DNA of 64,000 nt from positions 84,577 through 148,576 of the forward strand of contig CAYPCX010000003.1 of assembly GCA_964409365.1 (NCBI GenBank), read 5' to 3'. The stretch comes from an uncultured Planctomycetia bacterium. GTDB lineage: Bacteria; Omnitrophota; Gorgyraeia; Tantalellales; Tantalellaceae. Shown piece by piece: positions 3 through 61,318 of the stretch (positions are counted from its first letter, which is position 1; every line of letters starts with the position of its first letter). A model generated the notes under the pieces. The model worked only from the letters and a program-made list of their open reading frames with translations, was not told the DNA's origin and made no database searches. The translations under genes were made by a program, and so were the position numbers.

Positions 3-2132
3 ATGCTCTATGCGGGAACGACCGTTGTCAGGGGAACGGGTAAAGCCGTAGTTACCGCCACCGCCATGGATACGGAACTCGGAAAAATAGCCGAGGCGCT
101 CGCCGAGACCAAGACTCCCCCAACGCCGTTCGAGATAGAGGTCGATTCGCTTTCCAAGCATATCACTTTCGCTATACTCTTTCTGGTAGCGGGCGTCGCT
201 TCGCTTTTGTATTTCCGCCACACGATGCCACTGCCCGACATAGCCATATTCTCGCTCAGCCTCGGCGTCGGCGCCATACCGGAAAGTTTGCCGGTGGTCC
301 TTTCGTTCGCCCTCGCTATGGGCGCCCAGCAGATGGCCACACGAAAGGCGCTCGCGCGGCGCCTGGCCATAGTGGAATCGCTCGGATCGCTCGACGTCAT
401 CGGCTCCGATAAGACAGGTACGCTCACAAAGAACGAGATGACCGTCCAGGCGCTTTTCCTTCCGGGCCACGGTATATATCATGTTACCGGCGAAGGGTAT
501 GACCCCACACATGGCCAGATCGAACATCTCCACGAAGGCAAGCAGGGCGCGCTGGAAAGGCTCCTCACAGCCAGCATTTTGTGCAATGACGCGAAAGAAA
601 CGGTAAAGGACGAGAAAAGCATCTACCTCGGGGACCCCACGGAAATCGCCCTCCTGGTAGTGGGCGAAAAAGGCGGCCTCAAGGTCAAAGGCACGATCTC
701 GGATTCCCCGCGCCTCGACGAAATACCCTTTACGAGCGAACGCCAGATGATGACGACGATACACCAGATCAAGGGCGAAAAGACCGCCGTCTGTAAGGGC
801 GCGCCGGAAGTGATCCTGGCGAAATGCACGCACGTGGCAAAGAACGGCGATAAACAGCCGATGGATGAGGCGAACCGCTCGGAGATATCAAAGACCCTCG
901 AGAAGCTCGAGAACGACGCCCTGAGAGTCCTTGCCTTTGCCGGCCGCCCGGTAGCCGAAGGCGCGGACAAAGGCTCCATGGAAGAGGACCTTACCTTTTA
1001 CGGCCTGACGGGCATGATAGACCCGCCGAGGTCCGAGGTCCGCGCGGCCGTCGCCGAAGCGAAGGGAGCTGGCATACGAACGGTCATGATCACGGGCGAT
1101 CACGCGCTGACGGCCCGCGCCATAGCCGGCCGCCTGGGGATGGGGCAGAACGCCGTGACGGGCCGCGACGTCGATGCGATGAGCGACGACGAACTGCAGA
1201 AAAAAGTCCCCGGCATAGACATAGTGGCCCGCGCCACGCCGATCGATAAACTGCGCGTTCTTCAGGCGCTCCAGAGAAATAAACATTTCGCCGCGATGAC
1301 CGGCGACGGCGTGAACGACTCGCCCGCCCTGAAACAGGCCGACGTCGGTGTCGCCATGGGTCTCAGGGGAACCGACGCCGCGAAGGAGGCGTCGGGACTG
1401 GTCCTTCTGGACGACAATTACGCTACCATCGTGGCCGCGGTCGAGGAAGGCAGGCGGATATTCGACAACATACGCAAGTTCGTGAACTACCTCCTTACCT
1501 GTAATATCGGCGAAGTGCTCACCGTCATGCTCGGCGCGTTCTGGGGCCTTCAACCGGTAACGGCAATAATGGTCCTTTGGGTCAACATACTAACCGACGT
1601 TCTTCCGGCGATATCGCTCGCGGTCGACCCGCCGAACCCGGGCCTCATGAAACGCAAGCCGAGACCGCACGACGAGCACATACTCAACAAACCGCTCCTT
1701 CTTACGACCGTCGCTATCGGCTTGAAAAAAGGCTGCATGCTTTTCGGCGTTTTTCTGGCCGGCTACTATTGGATAGGGAAGGGTCTTCCGCACGCGGCGC
1801 GTCTGGAATACGCCCAGACCATGACGTTCACCGGGATCATACTTTACTCGTTCGTCCGCATTTTCGTCATACGAACGTTCGATACGCTGAAATTCTGGTC
1901 GAACCCGTGGCTCGTAATATCACTGGGCGTCGCGGTTTTTCTCCAGGTATTCATCATTTATACACCCGATGTGAACACGTTCTTCGGGCTTCAGCCGCTG
2001 GGATATAAGGCCTGGGGGATACTTTTGGCGATGGCTACGGCGGCCGGCTTCCTCGGGGTATGGATCTCGAAATGGATCGAATCCTGGGCCGGCTCGGTCA
2101 TAGACATAAGTGCCTCAAAACAAACCACTTAA
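3..2132 (+). CDS. Cation-transporting P-type ATPase, 5'-truncated by window edge (C-terminal ~709 aa)
   Basis: Phosphorylation motif DKTGTLT; hinge motif TGDGVNDSPALKQADVGVAMG; C-terminal multi-pass hydrophobic segments. Open at window start. Confidence 0.9.
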   Translation: MLYAGTTVVRGTGKAVVTATAMDTELGKIAEALAETKTPPTPFEIEVDSLSKHITFAILFLVAGVASLLYFRHTMPLPDIAIFSLSLGVGAIPESLPVVLSFALAMGAQQMATRKALARRLAIVESLGSLDVIGSDKTGTLTKNEMTVQALFLPGHGIYHVTGEGYDPTHGQIEHLHEGKQGALERLLTASILCNDAKETVKDEKSIYLGDPTEIALLVVGEKGGLKVKGTISDSPRLDEIPFTSERQMMTTIHQIKGEKTAVCKGAPEVILAKCTHVAKNGDKQPMDEANRSEISKTLEKLENDALRVLAFAGRPVAEGADKGSMEEDLTFYGLTGMIDPPRSEVRAAVAEAKGAGIRTVMITGDHALTARAIAGRLGMGQNAVTGRDVDAMSDDELQKKVPGIDIVARATPIDKLRVLQALQRNKHFAAMTGDGVNDSPALKQADVGVAMGLRGTDAAKEASGLVLLDDNYATIVAAVEEGRRIFDNIRKFVNYLLTCNIGEVLTVMLGAFWGLQPVTAIMVLWVNILTDVLPAISLAVDPPNPGLMKRKPRPHDEHILNKPLLLTTVAIGLKKGCMLFGVFLAGYYWIGKGLPHAARLEYAQTMTFTGIILYSFVRIFVIRTFDTLKFWSNPWLVISLGVAVFLQVFIIYTPDVNTFFGLQPLGYKAWGILLAMATAAGFLGVWISKWIESWAGSVIDISASKQTT

Positions 2133-2197: not shown

Positions 2198-2235
2198 GAA
2201 ACTTTTCCTGCGCGAAACTTGTCTAATATAGTGAG
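2198..2235 (+). promoter_or_regulatory. ECF (sigma-E-type) promoter GAAACTT-N16-GTCTAA-TATAGTGAG directly upstream of the ECF sigma gene (autoregulatory)
   Basis: -35 2198-2204, -10 2221-2226, ATG 2239. Confidence 0.6.
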
Positions 2236-2238
2236 ACC

Positions 2239-2796
2239 ATGATAAAAGCGATATCGAGAGAATTACTGGTGCGGGCCTCAGAAGGCGACATGGAAGCCTT
2301 CGAGGAGATATACAGGGCCTCTTCGGGTTATGTTTATACGGTCGCTTATGGGATAACGGCGAGCAGAGAGGACGCCGAAGAGGTGACCCAGGACGTCTTT
2401 GTAAAGATATACCGGAAACTCGGCGGTTTCGGTTTCAGGTCTTCGTTCAAGACCTGGATATACAGGATAACGGCGAATACCGCCATCAACCGGTACAGGA
2501 AAAAGGCCAAGAGGTTCCGCCGGGAGAGGCCCCTGGACGAGGTGCTATCCCGCGTGATCCCCGGGGAGAAAGGCGATGAAAAATTCGACGCCGATCACAA
2601 CAGGACGCTGGTCGATTCGATGCTGAAGAGCCTCCCGCCGGATCAGCGCGCCTGCGTGGTCCTCAGGGAGATCGAGGGCCTGAAGTACGAGGAAATAGCC
2701 CGGACCCTGGAAATAAAGATAAACACGGTAAAGACGCGGCTCAAGAGGGCGCGGAAAAAACTTATGACGATATACGGAAAAGGAGAAAAGCCATGA
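2239..2796 (+). CDS. ECF (sigma-70 family group IV, RpoE-like) sigma factor
   Basis: 185 aa; region-2 like FVKIYRKLGGF...WIYRITANTAINRYRK; region-4 HTH EIARTLEIKINTVKTRLKRARKKL. ATGA start/stop overlap with the downstream anti-sigma gene. Confidence 0.85.
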   Translation: MIKAISRELLVRASEGDMEAFEEIYRASSGYVYTVAYGITASREDAEEVTQDVFVKIYRKLGGFGFRSSFKTWIYRITANTAINRYRKKAKRFRRERPLDEVLSRVIPGEKGDEKFDADHNRTLVDSMLKSLPPDQRACVVLREIEGLKYEEIARTLEIKINTVKTRLKRARKKLMTIYGKGEKP

Positions 2797-3275
2797 GATG
2801 CTCTAAAATAAGAGAACTGGTCCTCACGGATTATACGGACGGGGAACTTAATGAACGCACGCGCGTAGAGGTCGAAGCCCACATGCGGACGTGCGAAAAT
2901 TGCCGGCGGTTCGAAGCCCGTCTTAAAAGCAGGGTCTCCGACCCCCTGAGAAAAGCGCAGCGGCTCGAACCCCCCGAATACCTGTGGTCGCGCATCAAAG
3001 GCGCGATAGAGGAAAGGGCCAAGGAAAACCCGCTCACCGCGCTGAAAGAACGGCTCGAGTCCGTTCTCGTCGTCAGAAGGCCGGCCCTGGCCCTGGCATC
3101 CCTTGCGGTTATCCTGATCGCGGCTGTCTTTTTCACCGGGACGTTCATAGAAAGATCCCGGCTTAACAGTTATATTGAAGAACAGGTCGATTTTTTGGAG
3201 ACACTTAACAACGGGAACGGCAACGGCTACACGTATGACGATATAGGCATCCCGATGGAAGATCTTTTCCTCTAG
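2793..3275 (+). CDS. Anti-sigma factor, zf-HC2 type (putative zinc finger) with single TM helix
   Basis: H-x3-C-x2-C motif HMRTCENC near N-terminus; TM helix PALALASLAVILIAAVFFTG. Translationally coupled to the ECF sigma gene. Confidence 0.7.
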   Translation: MRCSKIRELVLTDYTDGELNERTRVEVEAHMRTCENCRRFEARLKSRVSDPLRKAQRLEPPEYLWSRIKGAIEERAKENPLTALKERLESVLVVRRPALALASLAVILIAAVFFTGTFIERSRLNSYIEEQVDFLETLNNGNGNGYTYDDIGIPMEDLFL

Positions 3276-3277
3276 AG

Positions 3278-3315
3278 GGAACTTTTTCCGGAGCACCTTT
3301 GTCTAAGACAGTGAG
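3278..3315 (+). promoter_or_regulatory. ECF (sigma-E-type) promoter GGAACTT-N16-GTCTAA-GACAGTGAG upstream of CpxP-like gene
   Basis: -35 3278-3284, -10 3301-3306; begins 3 nt after anti-sigma stop. Confidence 0.6.
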
Positions 3316-3350
3316 AGGCGGAAAAAGGACGATCTTAAAAAAGGAGGAGA

Positions 3351-3854
3351 ATGATGAAAATGACAATAAGGACATTTACGGCATGTTTGGTCGCGATAAC
3401 TCTCTTGACCGCGGCGCCGCTTGCTTTAGCGCAGCCCGCTCAGGGCAGCGGACCCGAGGGCGCGGGAGAATGCTCAAGGGGCGGCGCGCGCGCCGGATTC
3501 CTCGAACAGCTCGATCTCACCGACGAGCAGAAAGAACGGATGAAAGAGCAGCGCAAGGCGAACAGGGAGAAGATGAAAGAGCTCATGGGATCCCTCAGGA
3601 ACGAACGCAACGCCCTGCGGGACGAACTGAAAAAACCCGACGCCAGCATGGATTCGGTCGCGGGCACCGTCGCAAAGATGAAAACGGTGCAGTCAGAAAT
3701 GATCGACCAGAGAGTGAACGGTTTTCTCACGATGAAGGAGATCCTCACCCCCGAACAGTTCCAGAAACTCCTCGAACTGAAGGAACAGAGGAAACACCGC
3801 GGCGGCAAACGCCGCATGGAAAAAAAGCACCACATGCGAGGGGACTGGGACTGA
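3351..3854 (+). CDS. CpxP/Spy-family periplasmic LTXXQ-motif protein (envelope stress chaperone-like)
   Basis: Signal peptide MMKMTIRTFTACLVAITLLTAAPLALA; two LTxxQ motifs (LTDEQK, LTPEQF); helical K/E-rich repeats. SD GGAGGAG upstream. Confidence 0.7.
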   Translation: MMKMTIRTFTACLVAITLLTAAPLALAQPAQGSGPEGAGECSRGGARAGFLEQLDLTDEQKERMKEQRKANREKMKELMGSLRNERNALRDELKKPDASMDSVAGTVAKMKTVQSEMIDQRVNGFLTMKEILTPEQFQKLLELKEQRKHRGGKRRMEKKHHMRGDWD

Positions 3855-4473: not shown

Positions 4474-6540
4474 ATGGGAGATCTAAGAGAACTTGACCTC
4501 AAGAGCTGTTACTGGTATGACCGGGATGACATCCTTTTCGACCTCTATCTTCCCGCGCTATCGGCAGCATCCGCCTGCAGCAAGGTAACCGGCCCTTTAT
4601 CCTCCGAGACCCTTTCGGATCTCGCGAAGAACCTCCCTCAATTCGCCAGAAAAGGCGGACGCACTTTTCTTATCACCAGTATAGTCCTGCCCGGCGGGGG
4701 AACAGTCTCCGCGGAAGATATCGTGAAAAACACCGAGAACAGGGTCCTCAAAGAGATCGGCTATGTCAAGGACGAGGCAAAAAGGGACGGTATCGCGCTT
4801 CTGGGATGGATGCTGAAGACGGGCAACCTGCAGATAAAGATAGCCGTCGTTCCTGAGGGAGCGGAAGCGCCGGAGATAGGCATACTGGAAGATAATACAG
4901 GGAACCGCCTTTCCTTCGCGGGTTCCGGGAACTCGGCAGTGCATGCCTTCAGGAGCTGGGACGAGAGCGGAAAATACGTCGATGCTGATCTCGGTATCTT
5001 CGCGGGCCTCTGGAAATGCGAGGCAAAAAAGACAAAGGTCTATCCCGCGTCCGAGATGTTCACGAACGGCCTTATCCGGTTCGCCCCGGACGACGAGGCC
5101 GCATTCCTGCGCCTGGCACGGTCGATGTCCGAACGGCTGATGGGCCAGCGCAGGAAAAGCGTCGTAAAAAAAGATCTGAGAAAATACCAGGAAGAGGCCG
5201 TGAATGCCTGGCTGGATAGCGGCGCCAAAGGCATACTGGAAATGGCCCCGGCAACGGGCAAGACCTTCACGTCAGTCCATGCGATCGAGGCCCTGAGCAT
5301 TAAAACAGGGAAACTCCTGGCCGTTATAGTAGTACCTCACGAGTACCAGATCTCACTGTGGAAAAAGGAATTAACGGATTTTTTCGGTTATGATTTCGCG
5401 GTCAAAGAAGTTCGCGGGGATATGTCCCAATGGCCTGAGATCCTTGAAGAAAACATTAAGAAATACGCCTCGGGTGAAATGGACCGGCTGGCGATCCTTA
5501 CCATGTATAACACGTTTTCCACAAGCAGGTTCCAGGACCTTGCAGCCGGTCTTCCGGGCGGGGATCCCCAGACGCTGCTTGTCGCAGACGAGGTCCGTTT
5601 CATGAACTTCCCCGAGTTCAGAAGCGGCATGAAAGACACGTACAGGTACAGGCTGGGCCTGAGCGCCGTGCCGCGCGACTGGCTCGAAGACGCGGGGGAA
5701 GATACGCTAAAACAATATTTCGGCGGTACGGTTTACAGCTTTACTTTACAGGACGCTATCCCGGAATTCCTGAGCCCCTACAGCTATTTCCCGCAAACGG
5801 TCGAAATGGGACCCGCCGAGCTCAGCAGATACGCTGAAAAGGCGGGGGAGGATCTCGAGCGGCTATCAAGAGAAAGAGCAAGGGTCATTCTGGAAAACCC
5901 GGGGATACGTGCCGGGTTCGAAAGGATCATACAGGACCTTAAAGAAGAGGGTCAGGTAAACCATCTCCTGGTCTATTGCAGGCCGGAGCAGCTCGATTGG
6001 GTCACGGAAACGCTGAAAGGCAAGGACATCCCGTATCACCGCCTCGACCTGCGGGAATCCAGGGAAGAAAGACGCCTTATGCTCGAACGTTTTAAAAAAG
6101 GCTCTGTCGCGGCCCTTTGCGCCGCGCGCTGTCTCGACCAGGGACTTGAAATGCCGGCGGCGAAAACGGTCATCTTCCTGGCCGCCGATTCCAGCCCCGC
6201 GCAATACATCCAGAGGAGGGGAAAAGTGCTCCTCAAAGACGCGGATAAGGAACAAACGGACATCTATGATTTTATAGTTCTTCCCGCCGAAGGACAGACA
6301 TTGAACAGGATGCTGTACCTCGCCGAAAGGAAGCTTTTCGATAAGCAGCTTGCCCAGGCCCAGATTTTTTACGTGAACGCCAGGAACAGTTCCGACGTGA
6401 TGCCAAAGATGCGCCAGATCGCTTCCCGGTACGACCTCGAGCTTAAGGAAACATCTGCCCCTCCACGCAGGACCGCGCCCATGGCAAGGCTCGGGGGCCT
6501 GGGCCGGCAAAGCTACCTCAATTCACAGAACGGAAAATAA
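4474..6540 (+). CDS. Superfamily-2 DEAD/DEAH-box helicase (type III restriction Res-subunit-like) with ~240-aa uncharacterised N-terminal domain
   Basis: Walker A MAPATGKT (motif I); motif II VADEVR (DExx-type); helicase-C motifs QGLEMP (V) and QRRGKV (VI). N-terminal domain has a GSGNS stretch but no clear HxK. 688 aa. Confidence 0.75.
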   Translation: MGDLRELDLKSCYWYDRDDILFDLYLPALSAASACSKVTGPLSSETLSDLAKNLPQFARKGGRTFLITSIVLPGGGTVSAEDIVKNTENRVLKEIGYVKDEAKRDGIALLGWMLKTGNLQIKIAVVPEGAEAPEIGILEDNTGNRLSFAGSGNSAVHAFRSWDESGKYVDADLGIFAGLWKCEAKKTKVYPASEMFTNGLIRFAPDDEAAFLRLARSMSERLMGQRRKSVVKKDLRKYQEEAVNAWLDSGAKGILEMAPATGKTFTSVHAIEALSIKTGKLLAVIVVPHEYQISLWKKELTDFFGYDFAVKEVRGDMSQWPEILEENIKKYASGEMDRLAILTMYNTFSTSRFQDLAAGLPGGDPQTLLVADEVRFMNFPEFRSGMKDTYRYRLGLSAVPRDWLEDAGEDTLKQYFGGTVYSFTLQDAIPEFLSPYSYFPQTVEMGPAELSRYAEKAGEDLERLSRERARVILENPGIRAGFERIIQDLKEEGQVNHLLVYCRPEQLDWVTETLKGKDIPYHRLDLRESREERRLMLERFKKGSVAALCAARCLDQGLEMPAAKTVIFLAADSSPAQYIQRRGKVLLKDADKEQTDIYDFIVLPAEGQTLNRMLYLAERKLFDKQLAQAQIFYVNARNSSDVMPKMRQIASRYDLELKETSAPPRRTAPMARLGGLGRQSYLNSQNGK

Positions 6541-35952: not shown

Positions 35953-38319
35953 ATGATATCTTTATTGCGGAACCGCAGCATAGCGTTCAAGCTCGTATTC
36001 TTCATCCTCTCAAGTTGCACTTTCATTTTCGCGGTCGTCTTCAGCTATAATTACGGTGTTTCCCGGGGAATAGTCTTAGACAGGATAGACGACCTGGCGC
36101 GTACCCTTACCGCCGGCGCTGTCAATAAGATAGAGTCCGTGCTGCTTCCCGTAGAAAAGATACCGGAACATCTCGCCCTCGCGCTGGGAAAGCACTTTCA
36201 CACCAGGGAAGAGCTCGAAGAACTGCTTTTTTCCGTCGTGGACAAGAACCCCGAGATATACGGCGCCGCCATAGCCTTCGCACCTTACAAGTTCGACCCG
36301 AACGTCTCCGACTTGGCGCTTTACTTCTACAGAAGGGACGGCGAGGTGCGGTCCGCCGACCTCGGCAGCGATTCGTACTCGTACCGCAAATGGGACTGGT
36401 ACACGGTCCCTAAAAAGCTCGAACGCCCGGTATGGAGCGAACCTTACTTCGACAAGGGCGGGGGCGAGACGCTGATGACCACCTATTCGGTCCCGTTCTA
36501 CCGGGAAACGGGCGGGGAGAAGGAATTCCTGGGGATCGCCACCGCGGATATGTCCCTCGTCGGGCTCCAGAAATTCATCGCCTCCATCAAGGTGGGGAAG
36601 ACCGGTTACGGATTTCTCATTTCCAAAAAAGGGACCCTGATCACGCACCCCGAGACGGACCTTGTCATGGACAAGACCATCCAGGAAGTGGCCAGGCTCC
36701 GGAACAACCCGGCACTGCTCAAGATCGGCGGGCAGATGATGCGGGGCGAAATAGGTTTCGCCCCCGTGAAAGATACATCCACCGGGAAAGAAACATGGAT
36801 GGCCTTCGCTCCCGTGCCCGCCAGTGACTGGTCGTTCGCGGTCATGTTCCCTAAGGGTGAGCTCATGCAGGACCTCCACGCCCTCAACAGGGCCGTCCTT
36901 GTCATCGGCTTGACCGGACTGGTGTTCCTGGCACTGGCGATCACCCTTTTTTCGAACTCTATAACAAAACCCCTTAGGGTCCTGGCCATCAAGACAAAGG
37001 ACGTGGGAAGCGGACATCTGGATTTCGAGCTCCCGCCGGCAAGATCGAAGGACGAGGTCGGCAGCCTTACCGAGTCCTTCCGGCACATGAAAGACGCGCT
37101 CAAAAGATACATAACGAAGCTGACCGAGACCACGTCCGAGAAGGAAAAGATCCAGAGCGAGCTGAAGATCGCGCAGCGCATCCAGATGGATATTCTTCCC
37201 AAGGTGTTCCCGCCCTTCCCGGAAAGGGAAGAGTTCGATATCTTCGCTATGATGAGGCCGGCCAAGGAAGTGGGCGGGGATTTCTACGACTTTTATTTCA
37301 TCGACGAGGACCACCTCTGCCTCGCCATAGGCGACGTCGCGGATAAAGGCGTTCCGGCGGCGCTTCTCATGGCCATGACCAAGACCTACATGAAATCGAC
37401 GGTGAAGGTGATACATAACGTGCCCGGCGTCATGTACAAGACCAACAAGGAACTCTGCATCGGGAACGATTCGGGCATGTTCGTCACCGCTTTCTGCTGC
37501 ATCCTGAACGTCAAAACGGGCGAGGTCTTTTCCTCCAACGCGGGGCACAACCCGCCCCTGGTGATCCGCAAGGGAAAGGACCCCGAATTTCTCGAAGAGG
37601 ATTCCGGTTTCGCGCTGGGCGCCTTTGAAGACGTTTTCTATGAGGAGCAGAAGATGGTCCTCAGGCCCGGGGACACCCTGCTTTTGTACACTGACGGCGT
37701 AACGGAAGCCATGAACAGGGAAAGGCAGCTCTTCTCCGAAGAAAGGCTGCGAAAAGGGCTGTCAAAACACCGTGACGACCCGATAAAGGAAATGGTCGAG
37801 AAGCTGGTGAGCGGAATAGATTCTTTCGCCCGGGGCGCTCCCCAGTCCGACGACATAACGGTCATGGTGCTCAAGTATTACGGCAAGGGAAGCACTGGCG
37901 CAGAACAAAAGAACAACGGTAAGATGACCCTCAAGAACGACCTCCCCGAGATCAGGAGGATGGCGGGCATCATGGACAGCTTCGGGAAAGCGAACGGCCT
38001 GTCACAGGAGCTGATAAACGACGCGAACCTCGCCCTGGAAGAGATCGTGAATAACATCATATATTACGCCTATGAAGATAAAAAAGAACACCTTATACAC
38101 GTGCGCATGAACATCGAAAGCGGGGAGCTCGTCCTGGAAGTGGCCGACGACGGCAAACCCTTCGACCCCCTGAGCGCCCCGGTATCGGATACCGATAGGC
38201 CCATCGAAGAAAGGACCGAAGGCGGCCTGGGTATATTCCTCTCCCGGAGAATCATGAACTCGATGGAATACAAACGGGAAGACGGAAAGAACATCCTGGT
38301 GATGAAAAAGAAGATATGA
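35953..38319 (+). CDS. Multidomain partner-switching regulator: TM - Cache-like sensor - HAMP - PP2C (SpoIIE/RsbU) phosphatase - HATPase_c (RsbW/SpoIIAB-like kinase)
   Basis: N-terminal TM + ~270-aa extracytoplasmic domain; second TM + HAMP (VGSLTESFRHMKDAL); PP2C motifs GGDFYDF, GDVADKG, LYTDGVTEA; C-terminal ATPase GGLGIFLSRRIM. Confidence 0.8.
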   Translation: MISLLRNRSIAFKLVFFILSSCTFIFAVVFSYNYGVSRGIVLDRIDDLARTLTAGAVNKIESVLLPVEKIPEHLALALGKHFHTREELEELLFSVVDKNPEIYGAAIAFAPYKFDPNVSDLALYFYRRDGEVRSADLGSDSYSYRKWDWYTVPKKLERPVWSEPYFDKGGGETLMTTYSVPFYRETGGEKEFLGIATADMSLVGLQKFIASIKVGKTGYGFLISKKGTLITHPETDLVMDKTIQEVARLRNNPALLKIGGQMMRGEIGFAPVKDTSTGKETWMAFAPVPASDWSFAVMFPKGELMQDLHALNRAVLVIGLTGLVFLALAITLFSNSITKPLRVLAIKTKDVGSGHLDFELPPARSKDEVGSLTESFRHMKDALKRYITKLTETTSEKEKIQSELKIAQRIQMDILPKVFPPFPEREEFDIFAMMRPAKEVGGDFYDFYFIDEDHLCLAIGDVADKGVPAALLMAMTKTYMKSTVKVIHNVPGVMYKTNKELCIGNDSGMFVTAFCCILNVKTGEVFSSNAGHNPPLVIRKGKDPEFLEEDSGFALGAFEDVFYEEQKMVLRPGDTLLLYTDGVTEAMNRERQLFSEERLRKGLSKHRDDPIKEMVEKLVSGIDSFARGAPQSDDITVMVLKYYGKGSTGAEQKNNGKMTLKNDLPEIRRMAGIMDSFGKANGLSQELINDANLALEEIVNNIIYYAYEDKKEHLIHVRMNIESGELVLEVADDGKPFDPLSAPVSDTDRPIEERTEGGLGIFLSRRIMNSMEYKREDGKNILVMKKKI

Positions 38320-52934: not shown

Positions 52935-52972
52935 GGAACTTTTTCGCCTCCCGTACTGTCTAAGACAGTAGA
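52935..52972 (+). promoter_or_regulatory. ECF (sigma-E-type) promoter GGAACTT-N16-GTCTAA-GACAGTAGA upstream of glycine-zipper lipoprotein gene
   Basis: -35 52935-52941, -10 52958-52963; gene start 52986/52989. Confidence 0.55.
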
Positions 52973-52985
52973 AGGGAGGAGGTGC

Positions 52986-53426
52986 GTGATGAAAAAGTTG
53001 ACCATGATCGTGCTCATTCTGGCGTTCAGCATGACCTTAGTACTGCCGTGCCCGGCCCAGGAAGACTCTGCTATAGCGATCATAAAAGCGGGCCTTTTGG
53101 GGGCAGGCGCGGGGGCTATCGGCGGGGCGGCTTCCGGAGCCAAGGGAAGGGACATCTGGAAAGGGGCCCTCGCGGGGGCCGGGACCAATATCATAGGGGG
53201 AGCCCTTCTGGACACGATTACCCGCAGTAGCACCACCACGCAGACCCAACGGTACTATGTGCAGCCTCAGCGCGCGGCGTATTCCCAGCCGGTAACGTAT
53301 TCTCAGCCTTCGTACACCGCGCACAGCACCCCCGGTGAGAGCTTCGATGATTACTTCCAGCGGGGGTACTACCTGGGGTACAAGGAAGGGTATGAGCAGG
53401 GATTCCGTGACGGCATGCGGCAGTGA
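52986..53426 (+). CDS. Glycine-zipper (Gly-zipper/YMGG-like) outer-membrane lipoprotein-like protein
   Basis: Signal peptide with Cys; GLLGAGAGAIGGAASGAKG...GALAGAGTNIIGGALL glycine zipper; Q/Y/S-rich tail. Confidence 0.6.
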   Translation: MMKKLTMIVLILAFSMTLVLPCPAQEDSAIAIIKAGLLGAGAGAIGGAASGAKGRDIWKGALAGAGTNIIGGALLDTITRSSTTTQTQRYYVQPQRAAYSQPVTYSQPSYTAHSTPGESFDDYFQRGYYLGYKEGYEQGFRDGMRQ

Positions 53427-53476
53427 CAGGTCCCCCCTGGAAATGGTATAATACCGGCAAAAGGGGGAGGTACAGA

Positions 53477-53701
53477 ATGAAGAGGATAATCGTATTGGTA
53501 GTGCTGTTCGCGTTCGCAGCCGGTTCGGTGTGTTTCGCCGCCGAGGGCGCGAAAACGACAAAAGCGAAGGATCCGGTCACGGCCACCTGTGAAGTAGCCG
53601 GAAAGACCGTGGCAGCTCCCGTGGAAGCCGTATTCGGCGGAAAGAAAAAGACGGAAGAACCGGCAAAGACCGGGACGGAGAAAACTACCAAGAAGAAGTA
53701 A
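53477..53701 (+). CDS. Small secreted Lys-rich protein
   Basis: Internal Met MKRIIVLVVLFAFAAGSVCFA with SD GGAGG; ORF-track N-extension rejected. Confidence 0.4.
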   Translation: MKRIIVLVVLFAFAAGSVCFAAEGAKTTKAKDPVTATCEVAGKTVAAPVEAVFGGKKKTEEPAKTGTEKTTKKK

Positions 53702-57309: not shown

Positions 57310-58767
57310 ATGTCGGCAAAAATATCGCAAAATATTAACAGTTTTTTCACGAAACAGCTGATCAATTTTTTGCCTTTCTTTTTAAAAAGGGCGTCCAAGA
57401 AGAACCTTATAAGTATGTTCGAACTTGCGGCCAAATTCGCCCACACTGAAGAGGACAAAAAAGACATATCCGGAACTATCTGGCGATTGAAGAACAATTA
57501 CGGGACCCTGGATTTTTTCAAACGCCTTATTGATGAACTAAATCCGCGATGCATGAAAAAGTTTTTCGAGAACGCGCATCTGGTCCATCACGATATCAGC
57601 AAAATAGGCCTGGAATTCCGGGAAAGGGAAGGTTTCCGCGGTCCCGATGTCCTGGTGCTCGATGTCACGGCCAGATGTAATTTGCGATGTAAGGGATGCT
57701 GGGCCGGGGAGTATGATAAGAAGGCCGAAGATCTCGATATGAAGCTGATCGAAAAAGCACTGGATGAGGCAAGATACAAAATAGGGCTTAACCATATCGC
57801 CGTAACAGGGGGAGAACCTCTTATAAGAGAAAACCTTTTTGACATCTTTGAGAAATACTCCGATTGCCAATTCATACTCTATACCAATGGGACGCTTTTA
57901 ACGGACGAGAAGATAAAGAAAATAGCCGAATTAGGGAACGTTTATGTGCTTTTAAGCATTGAAGGCAATGAGGAATATACTGACGCGAGAAGGGGGGAAG
58001 GCGTATATAAAAAGGTCATTAACGCCATGGAGAGGTTGAAGAAAGCCGGTGTCATATTCGGCTTTTCAAGCTGTCCTACCCGCGAAAATATCGAATACCT
58101 GGCCAGTGACGAGTTCGTCGATACCATGCTTGAAAAAGGCTGCCATTACGGTTTCTATTTCCAGTATGTTCCGGTCGGAAGGGATCCCGATCCTGAATTA
58201 ATGCCCACGCCCGAGCAAAGGAATGCCGTAAGGTATAGTCTTTACAGGCACAGGAACACAAAACCGATACTTTTGATCGATTTCTGGAATGACGGCCCTG
58301 AGGTCAACGGTTGCATGGCCGGTGGCAGGAAATACCTTCATATAACGAATAACGGTGACATTGAACCCTGTGTTTTTGTCCATTTTGCCGTAGGTAACAT
58401 CAAGGATATGAGCATAACAGATGCGCTTAAGTCGTCTTTTTTCACTGAGATAAGGAACAATATTCCCTATGACGGCAATCTTTTAAGGCCATGTATGATA
58501 ATCGACAGGCCTTACGTCCTAAGAGGCCTGGTCGAAAAACATAAAGCTTACGCTTCCGACAGGGATGCGGAACTTTTGTTCACCAAGTGCAAGGATGCGC
58601 TTGATAATTATTCCAAAGAATTAAGCGAAGTATTGGACAAGGAATGGGAGGCGGGAAAATGGATGTGTTTCTACCCGTCACCGGAGAGGCCCGAGATAAT
58701 AGGCCTTGATAAAGACAAAGCCGATGTCACGGCCTCGCATGGAACCCGATCTCCCGTTTCCGCTTAG
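57310..58767 (+). CDS. Radical SAM enzyme with SPASM/twitch-like C-terminal domain and ~110-aa N-terminal extension (RRE-like)
   Basis: Cx3Cx2C CNLRCKGC; GGEPL glycine-rich SAM motif; C-terminal NGCMAGG...ITNNGDIEPCVF...RPCM Cys cluster. Confidence 0.8.
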   Translation: MSAKISQNINSFFTKQLINFLPFFLKRASKKNLISMFELAAKFAHTEEDKKDISGTIWRLKNNYGTLDFFKRLIDELNPRCMKKFFENAHLVHHDISKIGLEFREREGFRGPDVLVLDVTARCNLRCKGCWAGEYDKKAEDLDMKLIEKALDEARYKIGLNHIAVTGGEPLIRENLFDIFEKYSDCQFILYTNGTLLTDEKIKKIAELGNVYVLLSIEGNEEYTDARRGEGVYKKVINAMERLKKAGVIFGFSSCPTRENIEYLASDEFVDTMLEKGCHYGFYFQYVPVGRDPDPELMPTPEQRNAVRYSLYRHRNTKPILLIDFWNDGPEVNGCMAGGRKYLHITNNGDIEPCVFVHFAVGNIKDMSITDALKSSFFTEIRNNIPYDGNLLRPCMIIDRPYVLRGLVEKHKAYASDRDAELLFTKCKDALDNYSKELSEVLDKEWEAGKWMCFYPSPERPEIIGLDKDKADVTASHGTRSPVSA

Positions 58768-59269
58768 CCGGGGGCGGTTCCATTAGCTTTCTGATGGCTT
58801 CAAAGATCGCACAGATCTCCCCGTCATGTTTTTCAACTTTTCGTTCCAACTCGGCTAATTTATGCATTAGCTCCTTATGCGTGACGACCATTTCTTTGAG
58901 TTTCACAAAAACTCGCATAATAGCAATGTTTACCTGCGCTGCCCGTTCGCTGTTCAATACGCTGGAAAGCATCAAGATCCCATGCTCGGTGAATGTATAA
59001 GGTAGATACCGTCTGCCTCCTCGTTTTGAGGTTTCAAATTGAAACCTCAAACTTTCGCTTTCCGCTCTATTCAGTTGGAACATGAAGTCCTTTGGAAAAC
59101 GATTTTTATTGCGCCTTACAGCCAGATTTAAAGATTTCGTGGGTACTCCATAAAGGATCGCCAGATCTTTGTCCAGCATCACTTTCTTGCCCCTGATCAG
59201 CAGTATTTTACCCGCGATGGTCTTCTGCGAAATCAGTCCTGTCATAACCGTTTTCTTCCGTTTCCCCAT
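58727..59269 (-). CDS. ORF6N-domain (KilA-N-like, phage antirepressor-type DNA-binding) protein, copy 1
   Basis: RNKNRFPKDFMFQL, RGGRRYLPYTFTEHGILMLSSVLNSERA; C-terminal coiled coil + EPPPAKRKR. 41-nt convergent overlap with the radical-SAM gene. Confidence 0.75.
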   Translation of the reverse strand: MGKRKKTVMTGLISQKTIAGKILLIRGKKVMLDKDLAILYGVPTKSLNLAVRRNKNRFPKDFMFQLNRAESESLRFQFETSKRGGRRYLPYTFTEHGILMLSSVLNSERAAQVNIAIMRVFVKLKEMVVTHKELMHKLAELERKVEKHDGEICAIFEAIRKLMEPPPAKRKREIGFHARP

Positions 59270-59312
59270 AAAACCTCCCTATCCTCAAATTTAATACTGT
59301 GGATTCCATACC

Positions 59313-59352
59313 CTCACAATATTAGACACATTTCCCGCCCAAATTCTTTCAC
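59313..59352 (-). promoter_or_regulatory. Variant copy of the conserved ECF-type promoter motif (TGAAAGAATTT-N-GTCTAATATTGTGAG) upstream of ORF6N copy 1
   Basis: Same spacing and 15-nt -10/start block as the ECF sigma gene promoter at 2198-2235. Confidence 0.45.
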
Positions 59353-59462
59353 TTTTTTTTGAATTATCCAGGTATATGCTTGCCATAAGAACGCCTTAGA
59401 CTTATAATTTGTACTCAAGGCCTGTTAATAGGGCAGGGCACAAAACGTAAAGGGAACACATA

Positions 59463-60119
59463 ATGCTGAAGAAAAAGGCTGAAGCGATAATCAGGGATAT
59501 CGGCAGGGCCGACCGGGTATTCACGATCAACAGGAATAAAGCCGCTTTTATAGTCGTCGATATGCAGAACTTCGTCTGTAAACCCAAGAAAAGCCCCAAA
59601 AAGATGATCGGCATTAAAAAGGTCGTCACCAATATCAACAGGATCGCCGACCTGTGCCGCCGGACGAACATACCCGTAATATGGATAAGGCAGAATTTCA
59701 CCATGAAAAAGGGCAAAAGCGACGGCGGCCTGTACGATAAATTCCACAAAACGCCTTTATCCCGCGAGATAACGAACCGAAGGCCCGGCACGGAGATCTA
59801 CAAAGAGCTCCATTTCGACGGGAAAAAGGACCACGTCGTGTTCAAGAACAGGTACAGCGCTTTCGAGAGCAAAATATCAAAACTGGATAATTTGCTGAAG
59901 AAGCTCGGGAAGAAACAGCTGATCTTCGCCGGTGCCGCCGTGAACGTATGCGTTGAAAGCACCATCCGTGACGCCATGCAGAAAGGGTATGAAGCCACGC
60001 TGGTCTCCGACGCGACCACGACTTTCGACAAGGCGCTTTTGGAAGCCAGCCTGTTCAATATTAAAATATACTTCGGCGACGTCCTGGACACGGCCGGCGT
60101 CTTAAAAGAACTGGCATAA
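59463..60119 (+). CDS. Isochorismatase-family cysteine hydrolase
   Basis: AFIVVDMQNFV (Asp), K, NVCVESTIRDA (Cys) triad pattern. Confidence 0.8.
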   Translation: MLKKKAEAIIRDIGRADRVFTINRNKAAFIVVDMQNFVCKPKKSPKKMIGIKKVVTNINRIADLCRRTNIPVIWIRQNFTMKKGKSDGGLYDKFHKTPLSREITNRRPGTEIYKELHFDGKKDHVVFKNRYSAFESKISKLDNLLKKLGKKQLIFAGAAVNVCVESTIRDAMQKGYEATLVSDATTTFDKALLEASLFNIKIYFGDVLDTAGVLKELA

Positions 60120-60131
60120 AAAAGGAACCCC

Positions 60132-60911
60132 ATGAAAACACATCTTTTTTATTTTTCCGCTACCGGCAACTCATTGAAGATCGCCAATGACCTGGCAAAA
60201 GAGCTCGGAGAGACCCGGGTCTTTTCTATCCCAAAGGTCATACATGAAACCCCCGATCTATCGGCCGAGCGTATAGGCATTGTCTTTCCCATGTACTACG
60301 GGGGGATCCCCAATATCGTCAAAAGGTTTATTGGTACGATCACCCCTGAGCCGGGGAAATACCTGTTCGCCGTCACCAGCGGAAGAGACGAAAATTCCCC
60401 CATGGGCGCCCTGGACCTGGCCCGGAAACTCTTCAGGAAAAAAGGCCTGGATCTATCGGCCGGTTTCTTCGTCCGGATGCCGGGAAATTATCTTCTCATG
60501 TACGATATCATATCGAAAGAAGAGCAGGAAGACCGGCTCAAGGAAGAAGAGGCCAGGGTCAGGGAGATCGCGGGAAAGATCACCGCCGGCGAGCGCTCCA
60601 TCGAAAAAGGCTCCTTTCTGGCGAACTGGCTGCTTTCCGGGGTAATGCACGGCATCGCCTCCTCAAGATTCGCGACGGCGGACAAATACCTCCGGGTAGA
60701 CGAGAAATGTACGCATTGCGGTACGTGCGAAAAGGTGTGCCCTGTCCGTAATATCAGGCTGCGGGACGGGGTCCCGACCTGGCTGCATCACTGCGAACAC
60801 TGCCTGGCGTGCCTGCACTGGTGTCCGGCCGGTGCGATCCAATGCGGGAAGAACACGGCGGGCCGTACCCGCTACAGAAATCCCCGGATAACGCTCGAGG
60901 ATCTCACATGA
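60132..60911 (+). CDS. Flavodoxin-like domain fused to 4Fe-4S dicluster ferredoxin (EFR1-type iron-sulfur flavoprotein)
   Basis: FYFSATGNSLKIA flavodoxin start; CTHCGTCEKVCP and CEHCLACLHWCP ferredoxin motifs. Confidence 0.7.
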   Translation: MKTHLFYFSATGNSLKIANDLAKELGETRVFSIPKVIHETPDLSAERIGIVFPMYYGGIPNIVKRFIGTITPEPGKYLFAVTSGRDENSPMGALDLARKLFRKKGLDLSAGFFVRMPGNYLLMYDIISKEEQEDRLKEEEARVREIAGKITAGERSIEKGSFLANWLLSGVMHGIASSRFATADKYLRVDEKCTHCGTCEKVCPVRNIRLRDGVPTWLHHCEHCLACLHWCPAGAIQCGKNTAGRTRYRNPRITLEDLT

Positions 60912-61318
60912 AAATAATAATAGACACCAACCTGTTAGTGGCCTGTATGTTCAATAAAAGCAGCGCTTCCGCCCGGATCATACGCCAGGCCGAAGAGGGC
61001 GCTGTCGATGTGATGTGGCATCAAAAGACCCGGAACGAAGCGCGATTCATTGTAGACCAGATCCAGAGGGCGGTCCCGAAAGTGAAGATCGACCTGGACA
61101 AGGTGTTCAGGGAACAGAACGAAGTGAAAGATATGCCAAGAATTGAAGATGCTTCCGAAGACCCTGAAGACAATAAGTTCCTGGCATGCGCCGTAGCGGC
61201 CGGGGCCGATATGATCGTTTCGAACGACGCGCACCTCCGGAAGCTTAAAAAGTTTCAAGGTATTCCCATTTATACCTCTCGCCGGGCCCTGGAGATCATA
61301 AAAAAGGAACACGCGTGA
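60908..61318 (+). CDS. PIN-domain protein (TIGR00305-like putative toxin), orphan
   Basis: MKIIIDTNLLVA (Asp), LACAVAAGADMIVSNDAHL; ATGA overlap with upstream gene; ORF-track N-extension is read-through. Confidence 0.7.
   Translation: MKIIIDTNLLVACMFNKSSASARIIRQAEEGAVDVMWHQKTRNEARFIVDQIQRAVPKVKIDLDKVFREQNEVKDMPRIEDASEDPEDNKFLACAVAAGADMIVSNDAHLRKLKKFQGIPIYTSRRALEIIKKEHA

Follow-up and report, generated by a model that had tools for sequence, protein, structure and literature searches.

In this 64-kb stretch of DNA from an uncultured bacterium of the Omnitrophota (the window, on contig CAYPCX010000003.1; positions are counted from the first letter of the window throughout) we find three copies of one bipartite motif, and the third copy, at 52935-52971, is very probably a promoter recognised by the extracytoplasmic function (ECF, group IV) sigma factor whose gene lies at 2239-2796, some 50 kb distant. 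The gene behind this third copy encodes a 145-amino-acid (aa) secreted protein with a glycine-zipper (Gly-zipper) motif. An earlier note on the same DNA had proposed a third ECF-type promoter copy at 52935, driving a Gly-zipper outer-membrane lipoprotein, and had extended the predicted sigma regulon to 52989-53426. The promoter has the sequence and coordinates quoted there, and the extension of the regulon is borne out by the motif preceding the orthologs of the Gly-zipper gene and by the linkage of this gene with the sigma cluster in related genomes; the description of the protein has to be changed. The coordinates of all features are collected in Table 1.

The first two copies belong to the sigma cluster. 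Copy 1 lies 12 nt 5' of the sigma gene itself, and because this is the classical layout of ECF autoregulation, with an anti-sigma gene adjacent to the sigma gene, we read the motif as the promoter of this sigma factor. The sigma protein scores 113 bits with TIGR02937, above the cut-off, and NCBIfam places it no finer than the sigma70-ECF superfamily. The anti-sigma protein carries an H-x3-C-x2-C motif (HMRTCENC), RPALALASLAVILIAAVFFTGTF, one hydrophobic segment and a short C-terminal tail. The target gene of copy 2 belongs to the Spy/CpxP/ZraP (LTXXQ) family (PF13801, 43 bits against a cut-off of 29.2; PF07813, 33.7 bits against 24.3), its matches to the CpxP and Spy models of NCBIfam being below cut-off. 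No second ECF gene was found within the window, and an Rfam scan of the whole window gave no match, so that no known RNA element explains the promoter block. The 12 nt between the -10 of copy 1 and the sigma ATG (2226-2241) compare with a usual gap of 13-19 nt in relatives, and from the predicted start the leader of the sigma mRNA would be about 6 nt long and have a minimal Shine-Dalgarno sequence, GAG(G), at its very beginning.

Copy 3 is located in a 94-nt gap between a 202-aa unannotated open reading frame (ORF) and the 145-aa gene. Its -35 element, GGAACTTTT, has the G-rich start, the AAC core and the T-tract of ECF promoters, and TGTCTAA is a -10 element of the GTC/TCnAA type within 16 +/- 1 nt of it, the spacing being 16 nt from GGAACTT to GTCTAA and 17 nt to TCTAA. 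The 16-nt spacer given in the earlier note, counted from GGAACTT to GTCTAA, agrees in all three copies, and the distance from RRAAC to GTCTAA is exactly 18 nt in each. The copies had also been described as alike in all their blocks, which holds for the spacing and for TGTCTAA but not for copy 1 in its -35 (GAAAC) and its discriminator (TATAGT); copies 2 and 3 share the discriminator GACAGT. The A at the second -35 position (GAAAC) is found only in the window sigma's own promoter, the consensus being GGAAC. The E. coli sigmaE consensus has a -35 of GGAACTTTT, a -10 of (T/C)GGTCAAAA / GTC(A/T)AA and a preferred spacing of 16 nt (PMC1312014), and residue R176 of sigmaE contacts the first G of the -35 (PMC1540707). 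We read the site as an ECF promoter because the motif equals this consensus with its preferred spacing and because R176 is conserved in the window sigma as R170. Since the promoters of E. coli sigmaE have a discriminator of 5-6 nt and a purine start (PMC1312014), the block downstream of the -10 is best read as a discriminator followed by the start site and the first bases of a leader that is very short, with transcription predicted to start at about 52969-52971, some 6-7 nt 3' of the -10; the leader of the Gly-zipper mRNA would then be about 19 nt. In 18 sites of relatives GTCTAA is fixed and the T before it is present in 17, a T at +11 from the G of GTCTAA occurs in 15, and purines follow in all 18.

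To obtain the number of matches expected by chance, we used dinucleotide-preserving shuffles of the 64-kb window. The pattern GGAACTTTT-N13-TGTCTAA with at most two mismatches is matched three times in the window (2198, 3278 and 52935) against 0.01 expected, each of the three sites having zero or one mismatch, and three matches were reached in 0/100 shuffles. With a two-block position weight matrix (PWM) built solely from 18 sites in other genomes, the three sites score 37.7, 36.9 and 35.9 bits, the next-best sites in the window score about 17 bits, and the top score per shuffled window ranges from 7.3 to 17.1 bits (20 shuffles). The PWM scan that the earlier note had called for thus puts the three copies at 36-38 bits and the shuffles at <=17 bits. 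The 13-mer shared by the copies, again with at most two mismatches, is found six times against 0.60 expected; a match at 36070 on the minus strand was rejected as chance (two mismatches, no -35, inside a long ORF). The hexamer GTCTAA occurs ten times in the window, and five of these are preceded by RRAA[C/G] at the 18-nt distance.

We assessed the conservation of the motif at the sigma loci by scanning GTDB species genomes with the sigma protein, which yielded about 46 orthologs of 42-64% identity, mostly from Candidatus Omnitrophota. An anti-sigma homolog comes next in nearly all of them, followed in most of those by a spy gene. A strict motif is present within 150 nt 5' of sigma at 34/46 loci and near-variants at 6/46 (-35 GTAAC or GCAAC; -10 GTTTAA), and at a further 6/46 the motif stands before the preceding gene, whose secreted product has a YYYYD motif. 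Most orthologous loci also have the motif between the anti-sigma and spy genes. Among distant ECF control loci of other phyla, GGAACTT-N-GTCTAA was found anywhere in only 1/34. A relaxed motif gives 105 matches in 947 kb of loci, 84 of which precede sigma (37), spy (36) or Gly-zipper genes (11); three more are Gly-zipper cases mis-called by the ORF picker, and most of the remainder precede other genes for signal-peptide proteins. From 81 non-redundant sites of relatives the consensus is GGAACTTTTT-N-TGTCTAAGATAGT(G/A)RA, with an RRAAC-to-GTCTAA spacing of 18 nt in 66/81; after TAA come five weakly conserved bases, a T, and then purines that run into the Shine-Dalgarno sequence.

Similar patterns are observed for the Gly-zipper gene. 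The exact protein is present on metagenome contigs JGI 3300029267 and ENA ERZ27256770, and it has 453 homologs, the named ones being from Candidatus Omnitrophota, including Ca. Tantalella remota. A sample of 80 metagenome loci of this family (387.5 kb) contains 20 strict motif matches, 19 of them of the GGAACTT type, and all 19 are on the strand of the matched gene and just 5' of ORFs on that strand. The strict motif lies 22-49 nt before the start codon in 10/16 of the best Gly-zipper orthologs. We then applied to these metagenome loci an independent PWM, trained on 69 sigma and spy promoters of GTDB genomes, and obtained bimodal scores: 12 close Gly-zipper orthologs score 22-42 bits at 21-60 nt 5' of the start, and all distant paralogs score at most 10.3 bits. 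At three loci (L021, L024 and L034) the site is about 520-540 nt 5', before a spy gene with the Gly-zipper gene immediately behind it, the two forming a motif-driven operon. When the 12 orthologous upstream regions are aligned, the invariant parts are G.AACT.TT, TGTCTAA, one T 6 nt later and the Shine-Dalgarno sequence with its conserved GGAG, and neither the spacer nor the flank 5' of the motif is constrained. Because the invariant promoter columns are confined to the -35, the -10 and the downstream T, we read the motif as a bipartite promoter and not as a repeat or a palindromic operator; in the same way the 13-mer, as the earlier note had it, is part of a promoter (-10 and discriminator), conserved together with a -35, and not a free-standing operator. 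For the note, absence of the motif from orthologous loci would have spoken against its reading; this was checked, and the motif is present there. It is scarcely credible that the three copies are a dispersed repeat, a chance similarity without promoter function or an ordinary sigma70 promoter. The GACAGT that is identical in copies 2 and 3 could suggest recent copying, but the spacer sequences of the three copies are unrelated, the number of matches expected by chance is far below three, and the motif is kept at orthologous positions in genomes whose proteins are merely 45-63% identical, and we rejected a repeat or duplication on these grounds. A sigma70 promoter was rejected as well, since TAAGAC lacks a T at the last -10 position and a sigma70 scan gives no site at 52935-52970.

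The strongest argument that the sigma factor at 2239 reads the site at 52935 is the linkage of the genes in relatives together with a promoter that is retained at a distance in the window. We observe the order Gly-zipper, sigma, anti-sigma, spy at loci L003/L083, L086 and L013, with motif copies before the Gly-zipper, sigma and spy genes at L003/L083 and L086, and before the Gly-zipper and spy genes at L013. At L021 the order is sigma, anti-sigma, spy, Gly-zipper; at L088 the Gly-zipper gene follows sigma, anti-sigma and spy about 1.3 kb further 3' with its own motif copy; and at L017 the Gly-zipper gene is followed by sigma. The Gly-zipper gene of the window has moved about 50 kb from the sigma cluster and has kept its promoter. 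The comparison of loci thus gives good support to the view that the Gly-zipper protein belongs to the conserved regulon of this sigma across Omnitrophota, with its gene often close by.

The -10 of copy 3 is overlapped by a perfect palindrome, TACTGTCTaAGACAGTA (52954-52970). All 8/8 pairs are complementary in copy 3, 6/8 in copy 2 and 3/8 in copy 1, and in 89 sites of relatives 3-4 pairs are the commonest count and 7 the highest. It is very unlikely that a dimeric DNA-binding protein uses this sequence as its operator, whether in place of the promoter or in addition to it. What speaks for such an operator is that the 8-1-8 repeat is perfect and stands at the extreme of 89 related sites, with 6/8 pairs in copy 2, and that the -10 half recurs elsewhere in the window without a canonical -35 (see below); against this, the symmetry is not conserved (the orthologous Gly-zipper promoters have GATAGT and 3-5 pairs), the conserved -10 and discriminator consensus by itself yields 3-4 pairs, and the conserved positions fall into two parts, the distance to the -35 being fixed, for which an operator would have no need. 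The palindrome is most likely incidental, though an outlier.

Two further GTCTAA sites with the 18-nt spacing and a GAAAG -35, at 59350-59322 and 61924-61896 on the minus strand (PWM about 17 bits), had been missed by the earlier note. Both lie within a block of about 48 nt, AAAAAA[G/T]TGAAAGAATTTGGGCGGGA[A/G]ATGTGTCTAATAT[T/A]GTGAGGGT, whose two copies share 46/48 positions and precede two ORF6N-domain genes; the blocks are 96% identical and the encoded proteins just 55%. The -10 half of these sites is identical at 16/16 positions to copy 1, the sigma gene's own promoter, and the sites lack the AAC of the -35. TGAAAG-N17-TGTCTAA was not found in 162 loci, the block was not matched exactly in any viral contig, and in its place the closest ORF6N homologs of viruses carry a sigma70-like TTGAAA-N17-TAATAT. 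Because of the perfect palindrome at the Gly-zipper promoter and the 16/16 recurrence before ORF6N genes without the AAC, the -10 block could be more than a sigma contact, with a second factor, possibly the ORF6N (KilA-N-like) proteins of a mobile element, binding there and exploiting or modulating the host ECF regulon; we consider this distinctly unlikely. The genes listed in Table 1 near the ORF6N genes include a PIN_3 domain protein, and the PIN and ORF6N content at 57310-61318 may be a sign of a patch that is mobile or rich in toxin-antitoxin genes.

Judging from its N-terminus and from 27 aligned homologs, the protein encoded at 52989-53426 is probably no lipoprotein. The lipobox has the consensus [LVI][ASTVI][GAS]C, and cleavage by signal peptidase I follows the -3/-1 rule. 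The window sequence V-L-P-C has Pro at -1, which violates the lipobox, and the Cys of LVLPC|PAQ is C in 15/27 homologs and G, V, S, A or N in 12/27. The Ala-Gln two residues past the Cys column is nearly invariant, giving a conserved C/S/G-x-A|Q, and cleavage by signal peptidase I at small-x-A|Q fits better than a lipobox. The lipoprotein label of the earlier note is therefore unsupported, and it should be dropped together with the outer-membrane label. The Gly-zipper label of the same note holds as a sequence motif, and at that level alone, since every Pfam Gly-zipper model, although aligned to the expected part of the protein, stays below its gathering cut-off. The glycines G35, G38, G42, G45, G50, G59, G63 and G70 are invariant in the alignment, and the (G/A/S)xxxGxxxG pattern of a helical hairpin is present as A34-G38-G42-G46-G50 and G59-G63 / G70-G71, with the helices taken from a low-confidence model. 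The mature protein further contains a Q/P/Y-rich linker of variable length and a C-terminus with nearly invariant G126, Y127, G130, Y131, K132, G134 and Y135. With PF13436, PF13441, PF05433 and PF13488 the window protein reached no gathering cut-off, scoring 14.1 (cut-off 27), 7.9 (28.9) and 9.3 (24.2) bits; the 14.1-bit match to the Gly-zipper_OmpA model aligned positions 6-42 of 44, and the best homolog has 23.1 bits against a Gly-zipper cut-off of 27. PF13436 is matched at E<=0.01 by 12/27 homologs, precomputed tables give PF13441 for many homologs, and weak matches to Yae1_N (a GxxxG repeat) occur in 7/27. NCBIfam gave nothing at cut-off, its one match being to the N-terminal part of YiaD with 19 bits. 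An AlphaFold2 model from the 27-homolog alignment, of low confidence (mean predicted local distance difference test, pLDDT, 52.6; predicted template modelling score, pTM, 0.23), has helices at 27-48, 56-80 and 119-143, and a PDB profile search with the alignment returned low-complexity chance matches alone (E >= 0.12). So far as sequence goes, "glycine zipper" is a motif-level statement.

By analogy the nearest functional counterparts of the Gly-zipper protein are the two-helix outer-membrane lipoproteins SlyB, YfgH, OsmB and YiaD of E. coli, which are likewise small exported proteins with a GxxxG helical hairpin and are induced by envelope stress. Oligomeric rings of SlyB are reported to surround and stabilise nanodomains of lipid and outer-membrane proteins, and YfgH is predicted to act alike (bioRxiv 10.64898/2025.12.22.696046); SlyB is under PhoPQ (bioRxiv 10.64898/2026.06.08.730324) and not ECF control. 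The window protein differs from these four in lacking a conserved lipobox Cys, in scoring below the cut-offs of PF05433, PF13436, PF13441 and PF13488, and in its additional Q/P/Y-rich linker and GY-repeat C-terminal helix. The analogy suggests that it probably acts in or on the membrane during envelope stress.

As a whole the system resembles those of E. coli sigmaE and P. aeruginosa AlgU, with a nearly identical promoter, 16-17 nt spacing, autoregulation of the sigma operon and exported envelope targets (PMC1312014, PMC1540707). It is not an RpoE ortholog by the equivalog model or by the type of anti-sigma factor: the window sigma is 31% identical to E. coli RpoE and scores 92.4 bits with the RpoE equivalog TIGR02939 against a cut-off of 236, and its anti-sigma is a zf-HC2 protein and not RseA. 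The targets are Spy-like, Gly-zipper and YYYYD-motif proteins, and not BAM, Skp or DegP. In E. coli itself Spy and CpxP fall under different stress systems, Cpx and Bae. Group ECF281 of the ECF classification 2.0 (Casas-Pastor et al. 2021, PMC7826278) is described as an ECF gene followed by a zinc-finger anti-sigma (+1) and then a PF13801 "heavy-metal resistance" protein (+2). The genes at 2239-3854 have exactly this order (PF13490 at 2793-3275 as +1, PF13801 at 3351-3854 as +2), as do the orthologous loci, and the likeness to ECF281 is one of gene layout. The main text of PMC7826278 says nothing of a Gly-zipper target. In the literature we found no functional study of ECF281, no work pairing GTCTAA with ECF sigma factors, and none on the ECF sigma factors of Omnitrophota.

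Several points weigh against the assignment of the 52935 promoter to the sigma factor at 2239 and against the function given to its target. In place of R171 and S172 of sigmaE the window sigma has Lys and T166; in the correlation of Lane and Darst, the second -35 position is G where the residue is Ser and A where it is Thr (PMC1540707), so that T166 predicts an A, yet G dominates in these promoters, a small discrepancy. The window makes 64 kb of the genome visible, and another ECF paralog with the same specificity may exist. The palindrome at copy 3 is an outlier among 89 related sites that the promoter model does not explain. No Pfam model reaches its threshold for the Gly-zipper assignment, and the pLDDT of the structure model is 52.6. 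The regulon is predicted from sequence, and so is its start site. The first two of these points, and the fact that RpoE-like -35/-10 motifs (consensus in PMC1540707 and PMC1312014) are common to many ECF groups, would be accommodated if copy 3 were a genuine ECF promoter read by a different sigma factor with GGAAC/GTCTAA specificity encoded outside the window, the Gly-zipper gene then being outside the 2239 regulon. We regard this as unlikely, because the motif precedes the gene of this very sigma, both here and in the ~46 orthologs, the Gly-zipper gene with its own motif copy adjoins the sigma cluster in several relatives, and the window contains no second ECF gene that we could find.

The motif and its statistics, its bipartite conservation at orthologous loci and the conserved linkage of the four genes are observed; from them, with the 2239 sigma factor as the reader of all three copies, we infer which factor binds, where transcription starts, what induces the system and what the protein does, as follows. 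In the absence of stress the membrane-anchored zinc-finger anti-sigma (2793-3275) would hold the sigma factor, and an envelope signal, possibly protein-folding, metal or membrane stress, would free it. Sigma-RNA polymerase would then bind GGAACTTTT as -35 and TGTCTAA as -10 and initiate about 6-7 nt 3' of the -10. Three units would be transcribed, namely the sigma operon (positive autoregulation), the gene of the Spy/CpxP-like periplasmic chaperone, and 52989-53426, whose product would be exported through its signal peptidase I-type signal peptide and is predicted to have a two-helix GxxxG zipper and a C-terminal GY-repeat helix.

Other genes lie close to these units, in the window and in relatives. 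A gene for a 74-aa secreted protein comes 50 nt 3' of the Gly-zipper gene; a near-consensus sigma70-like promoter with an extended -10 lies at 53423-53452 (GTGACA-18-TGgTATAAT, 11/12 matches), no terminator-like site was found between the two genes, and the 74-aa gene is possibly read through from the ECF promoter. Its product has a weak similarity to Asr (24.5 bits against a cut-off of 50), and in L004 a small protein like it is preceded by an ECF motif (at 5029). The gene of a P-type cation ATPase (window 3-2132) ends 66 nt before copy 1, and a distant P-type ATPase is also found 5' of sigma in L101 (412-1695), an arrangement that is not conserved at other loci; the adjacency could point to a metal or an ion as the signal, which would agree with the "heavy-metal resistance" name of PF13801. 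In relatives, His/Arg-rich secreted proteins of about 145-210 aa, most with a YYYY(D) motif, form a recurrent family with the ECF motif 5' (L097:598, L099:3230, L104:3233, L105:3246, L107:3155, L116:3385, L118:3337). Their gene lies directly 5' of sigma, and the promoter of the sigma operon precedes it in 6/7 loci, L116 retaining an additional motif copy directly before sigma; no homolog of this protein was found in the 64-kb window. In one Omnitrophota metagenome-assembled genome an ECF motif (L104:7161) lies 45 nt before the gene of a 420-aa signal-peptide protein, about 3 kb 3' of the sigma cluster, and this protein's N-terminus, judged by sequence, looks like that of a TolC-type outer-membrane efflux protein.

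Table 1. Coordinates of the features discussed, in window positions
Feature	Position	Strand	Basis or remark
Promoter copy 1, GAAACTTTT..TGTCTAAtatagtgag (GAAACTTTT-N13-TGTCTAA)	2198..2226	+	36.9 bits; 12 nt before sigma ATG
ECF sigma factor gene, 185 aa	2239..2796	+	Sigma70_r2 57.8 bits, Sigma70_r4_2 72.3 bits
Anti-sigma gene, zf-HC2	2793..3275	+	PF13490 39.2 bits; start overlaps sigma stop codon by 4 nt
Promoter copy 2, GGAACTTTT..TGTCTAAgacagtgag	3278..3306	+	37.7 bits; between anti-sigma and Spy-like genes
Spy/CpxP-like periplasmic protein gene (PF13801 / LTXXQ)	3351..3854	+	both Pfam families above cut-off
Copy 3, -35 element GGAACTTTT	52935..52943	+	GGAAC = 52935-52939, T-tract next; G.AACT.TT invariant in 12 orthologous upstream regions
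Copy 3, variable spacer, 13 nt from T-tract to TGTCTAA	52944..52956	+	no conserved column in 12-region alignment
Copy 3, -10 element TGTCTAA	52957..52963	+	invariant in 12-region alignment of orthologous upstream regions
Palindrome TACTGTCTaAGACAGTA, perfect 8-1-8, 17 nt	52954..52970	.	overlaps -10 of copy 3, 8/8 pairs
Copy 3, discriminator GACAG + conserved T + purines	52964..52971	+	GACAGT = 52964-52969
Shine-Dalgarno GGAGGAGG, two overlapping GGAGG	52975..52982	+	ends 6 nt before ATG at 52989
Gene for 145-aa secreted Gly-zipper-like protein	52989..53426 incl. stop codon	+	alignment of 27 homologs supports start at MKK
Signal peptide, residues 1-23, predicted signal peptidase I cleavage PCPA|Q	52989..53057	+	homolog alignment
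Two-helix Gly-zipper region, residues 34-75	53088..53213	+	A34/G38/G42/G46/G50 in register, G59/G63/G70/G71
C-terminal GYxxGYKxGYxxG helix, residues 119-143	53343..53417	+	homolog alignment and low-confidence model
Gene for 74-aa secreted Lys/Thr/Ala-rich protein	53477..53701	+	50-nt gap 3' of Gly-zipper gene
Radical SAM/SPASM protein	57310-58767		near ORF6N genes
Isochorismatase-family protein	59463-60119		near ORF6N genes
Flavodoxin/4Fe-4S protein	60132-60911		near ORF6N genes
PIN_3 domain protein	60908-61318		near ORF6N genes

The Omnitrophota are uncultured and we found no published work on their stress regulation, and the regulon proposed here, with one ECF sigma factor, its anti-sigma factor, the Spy-like chaperone and the Gly-zipper protein, joined in relatives by a secreted protein with the YYYYD motif, is concrete and testable. 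Its promoter is probably readable by E. coli sigmaE-type tools. The computationally defined group ECF281 gains a candidate target motif and target genes, and an uncharacterised glycine-zipper family is linked to envelope stress. The mechanism is a textbook one, and the value of the result lies in annotation and in the choice of targets for heterologous tests rather than in a new principle. The sigma/anti-sigma/Spy/Gly-zipper/YYYYD set may be the core of a phylum-wide envelope-stress regulon of Omnitrophota, in which the Gly-zipper protein may be a non-lipidated counterpart of SlyB and YfgH.

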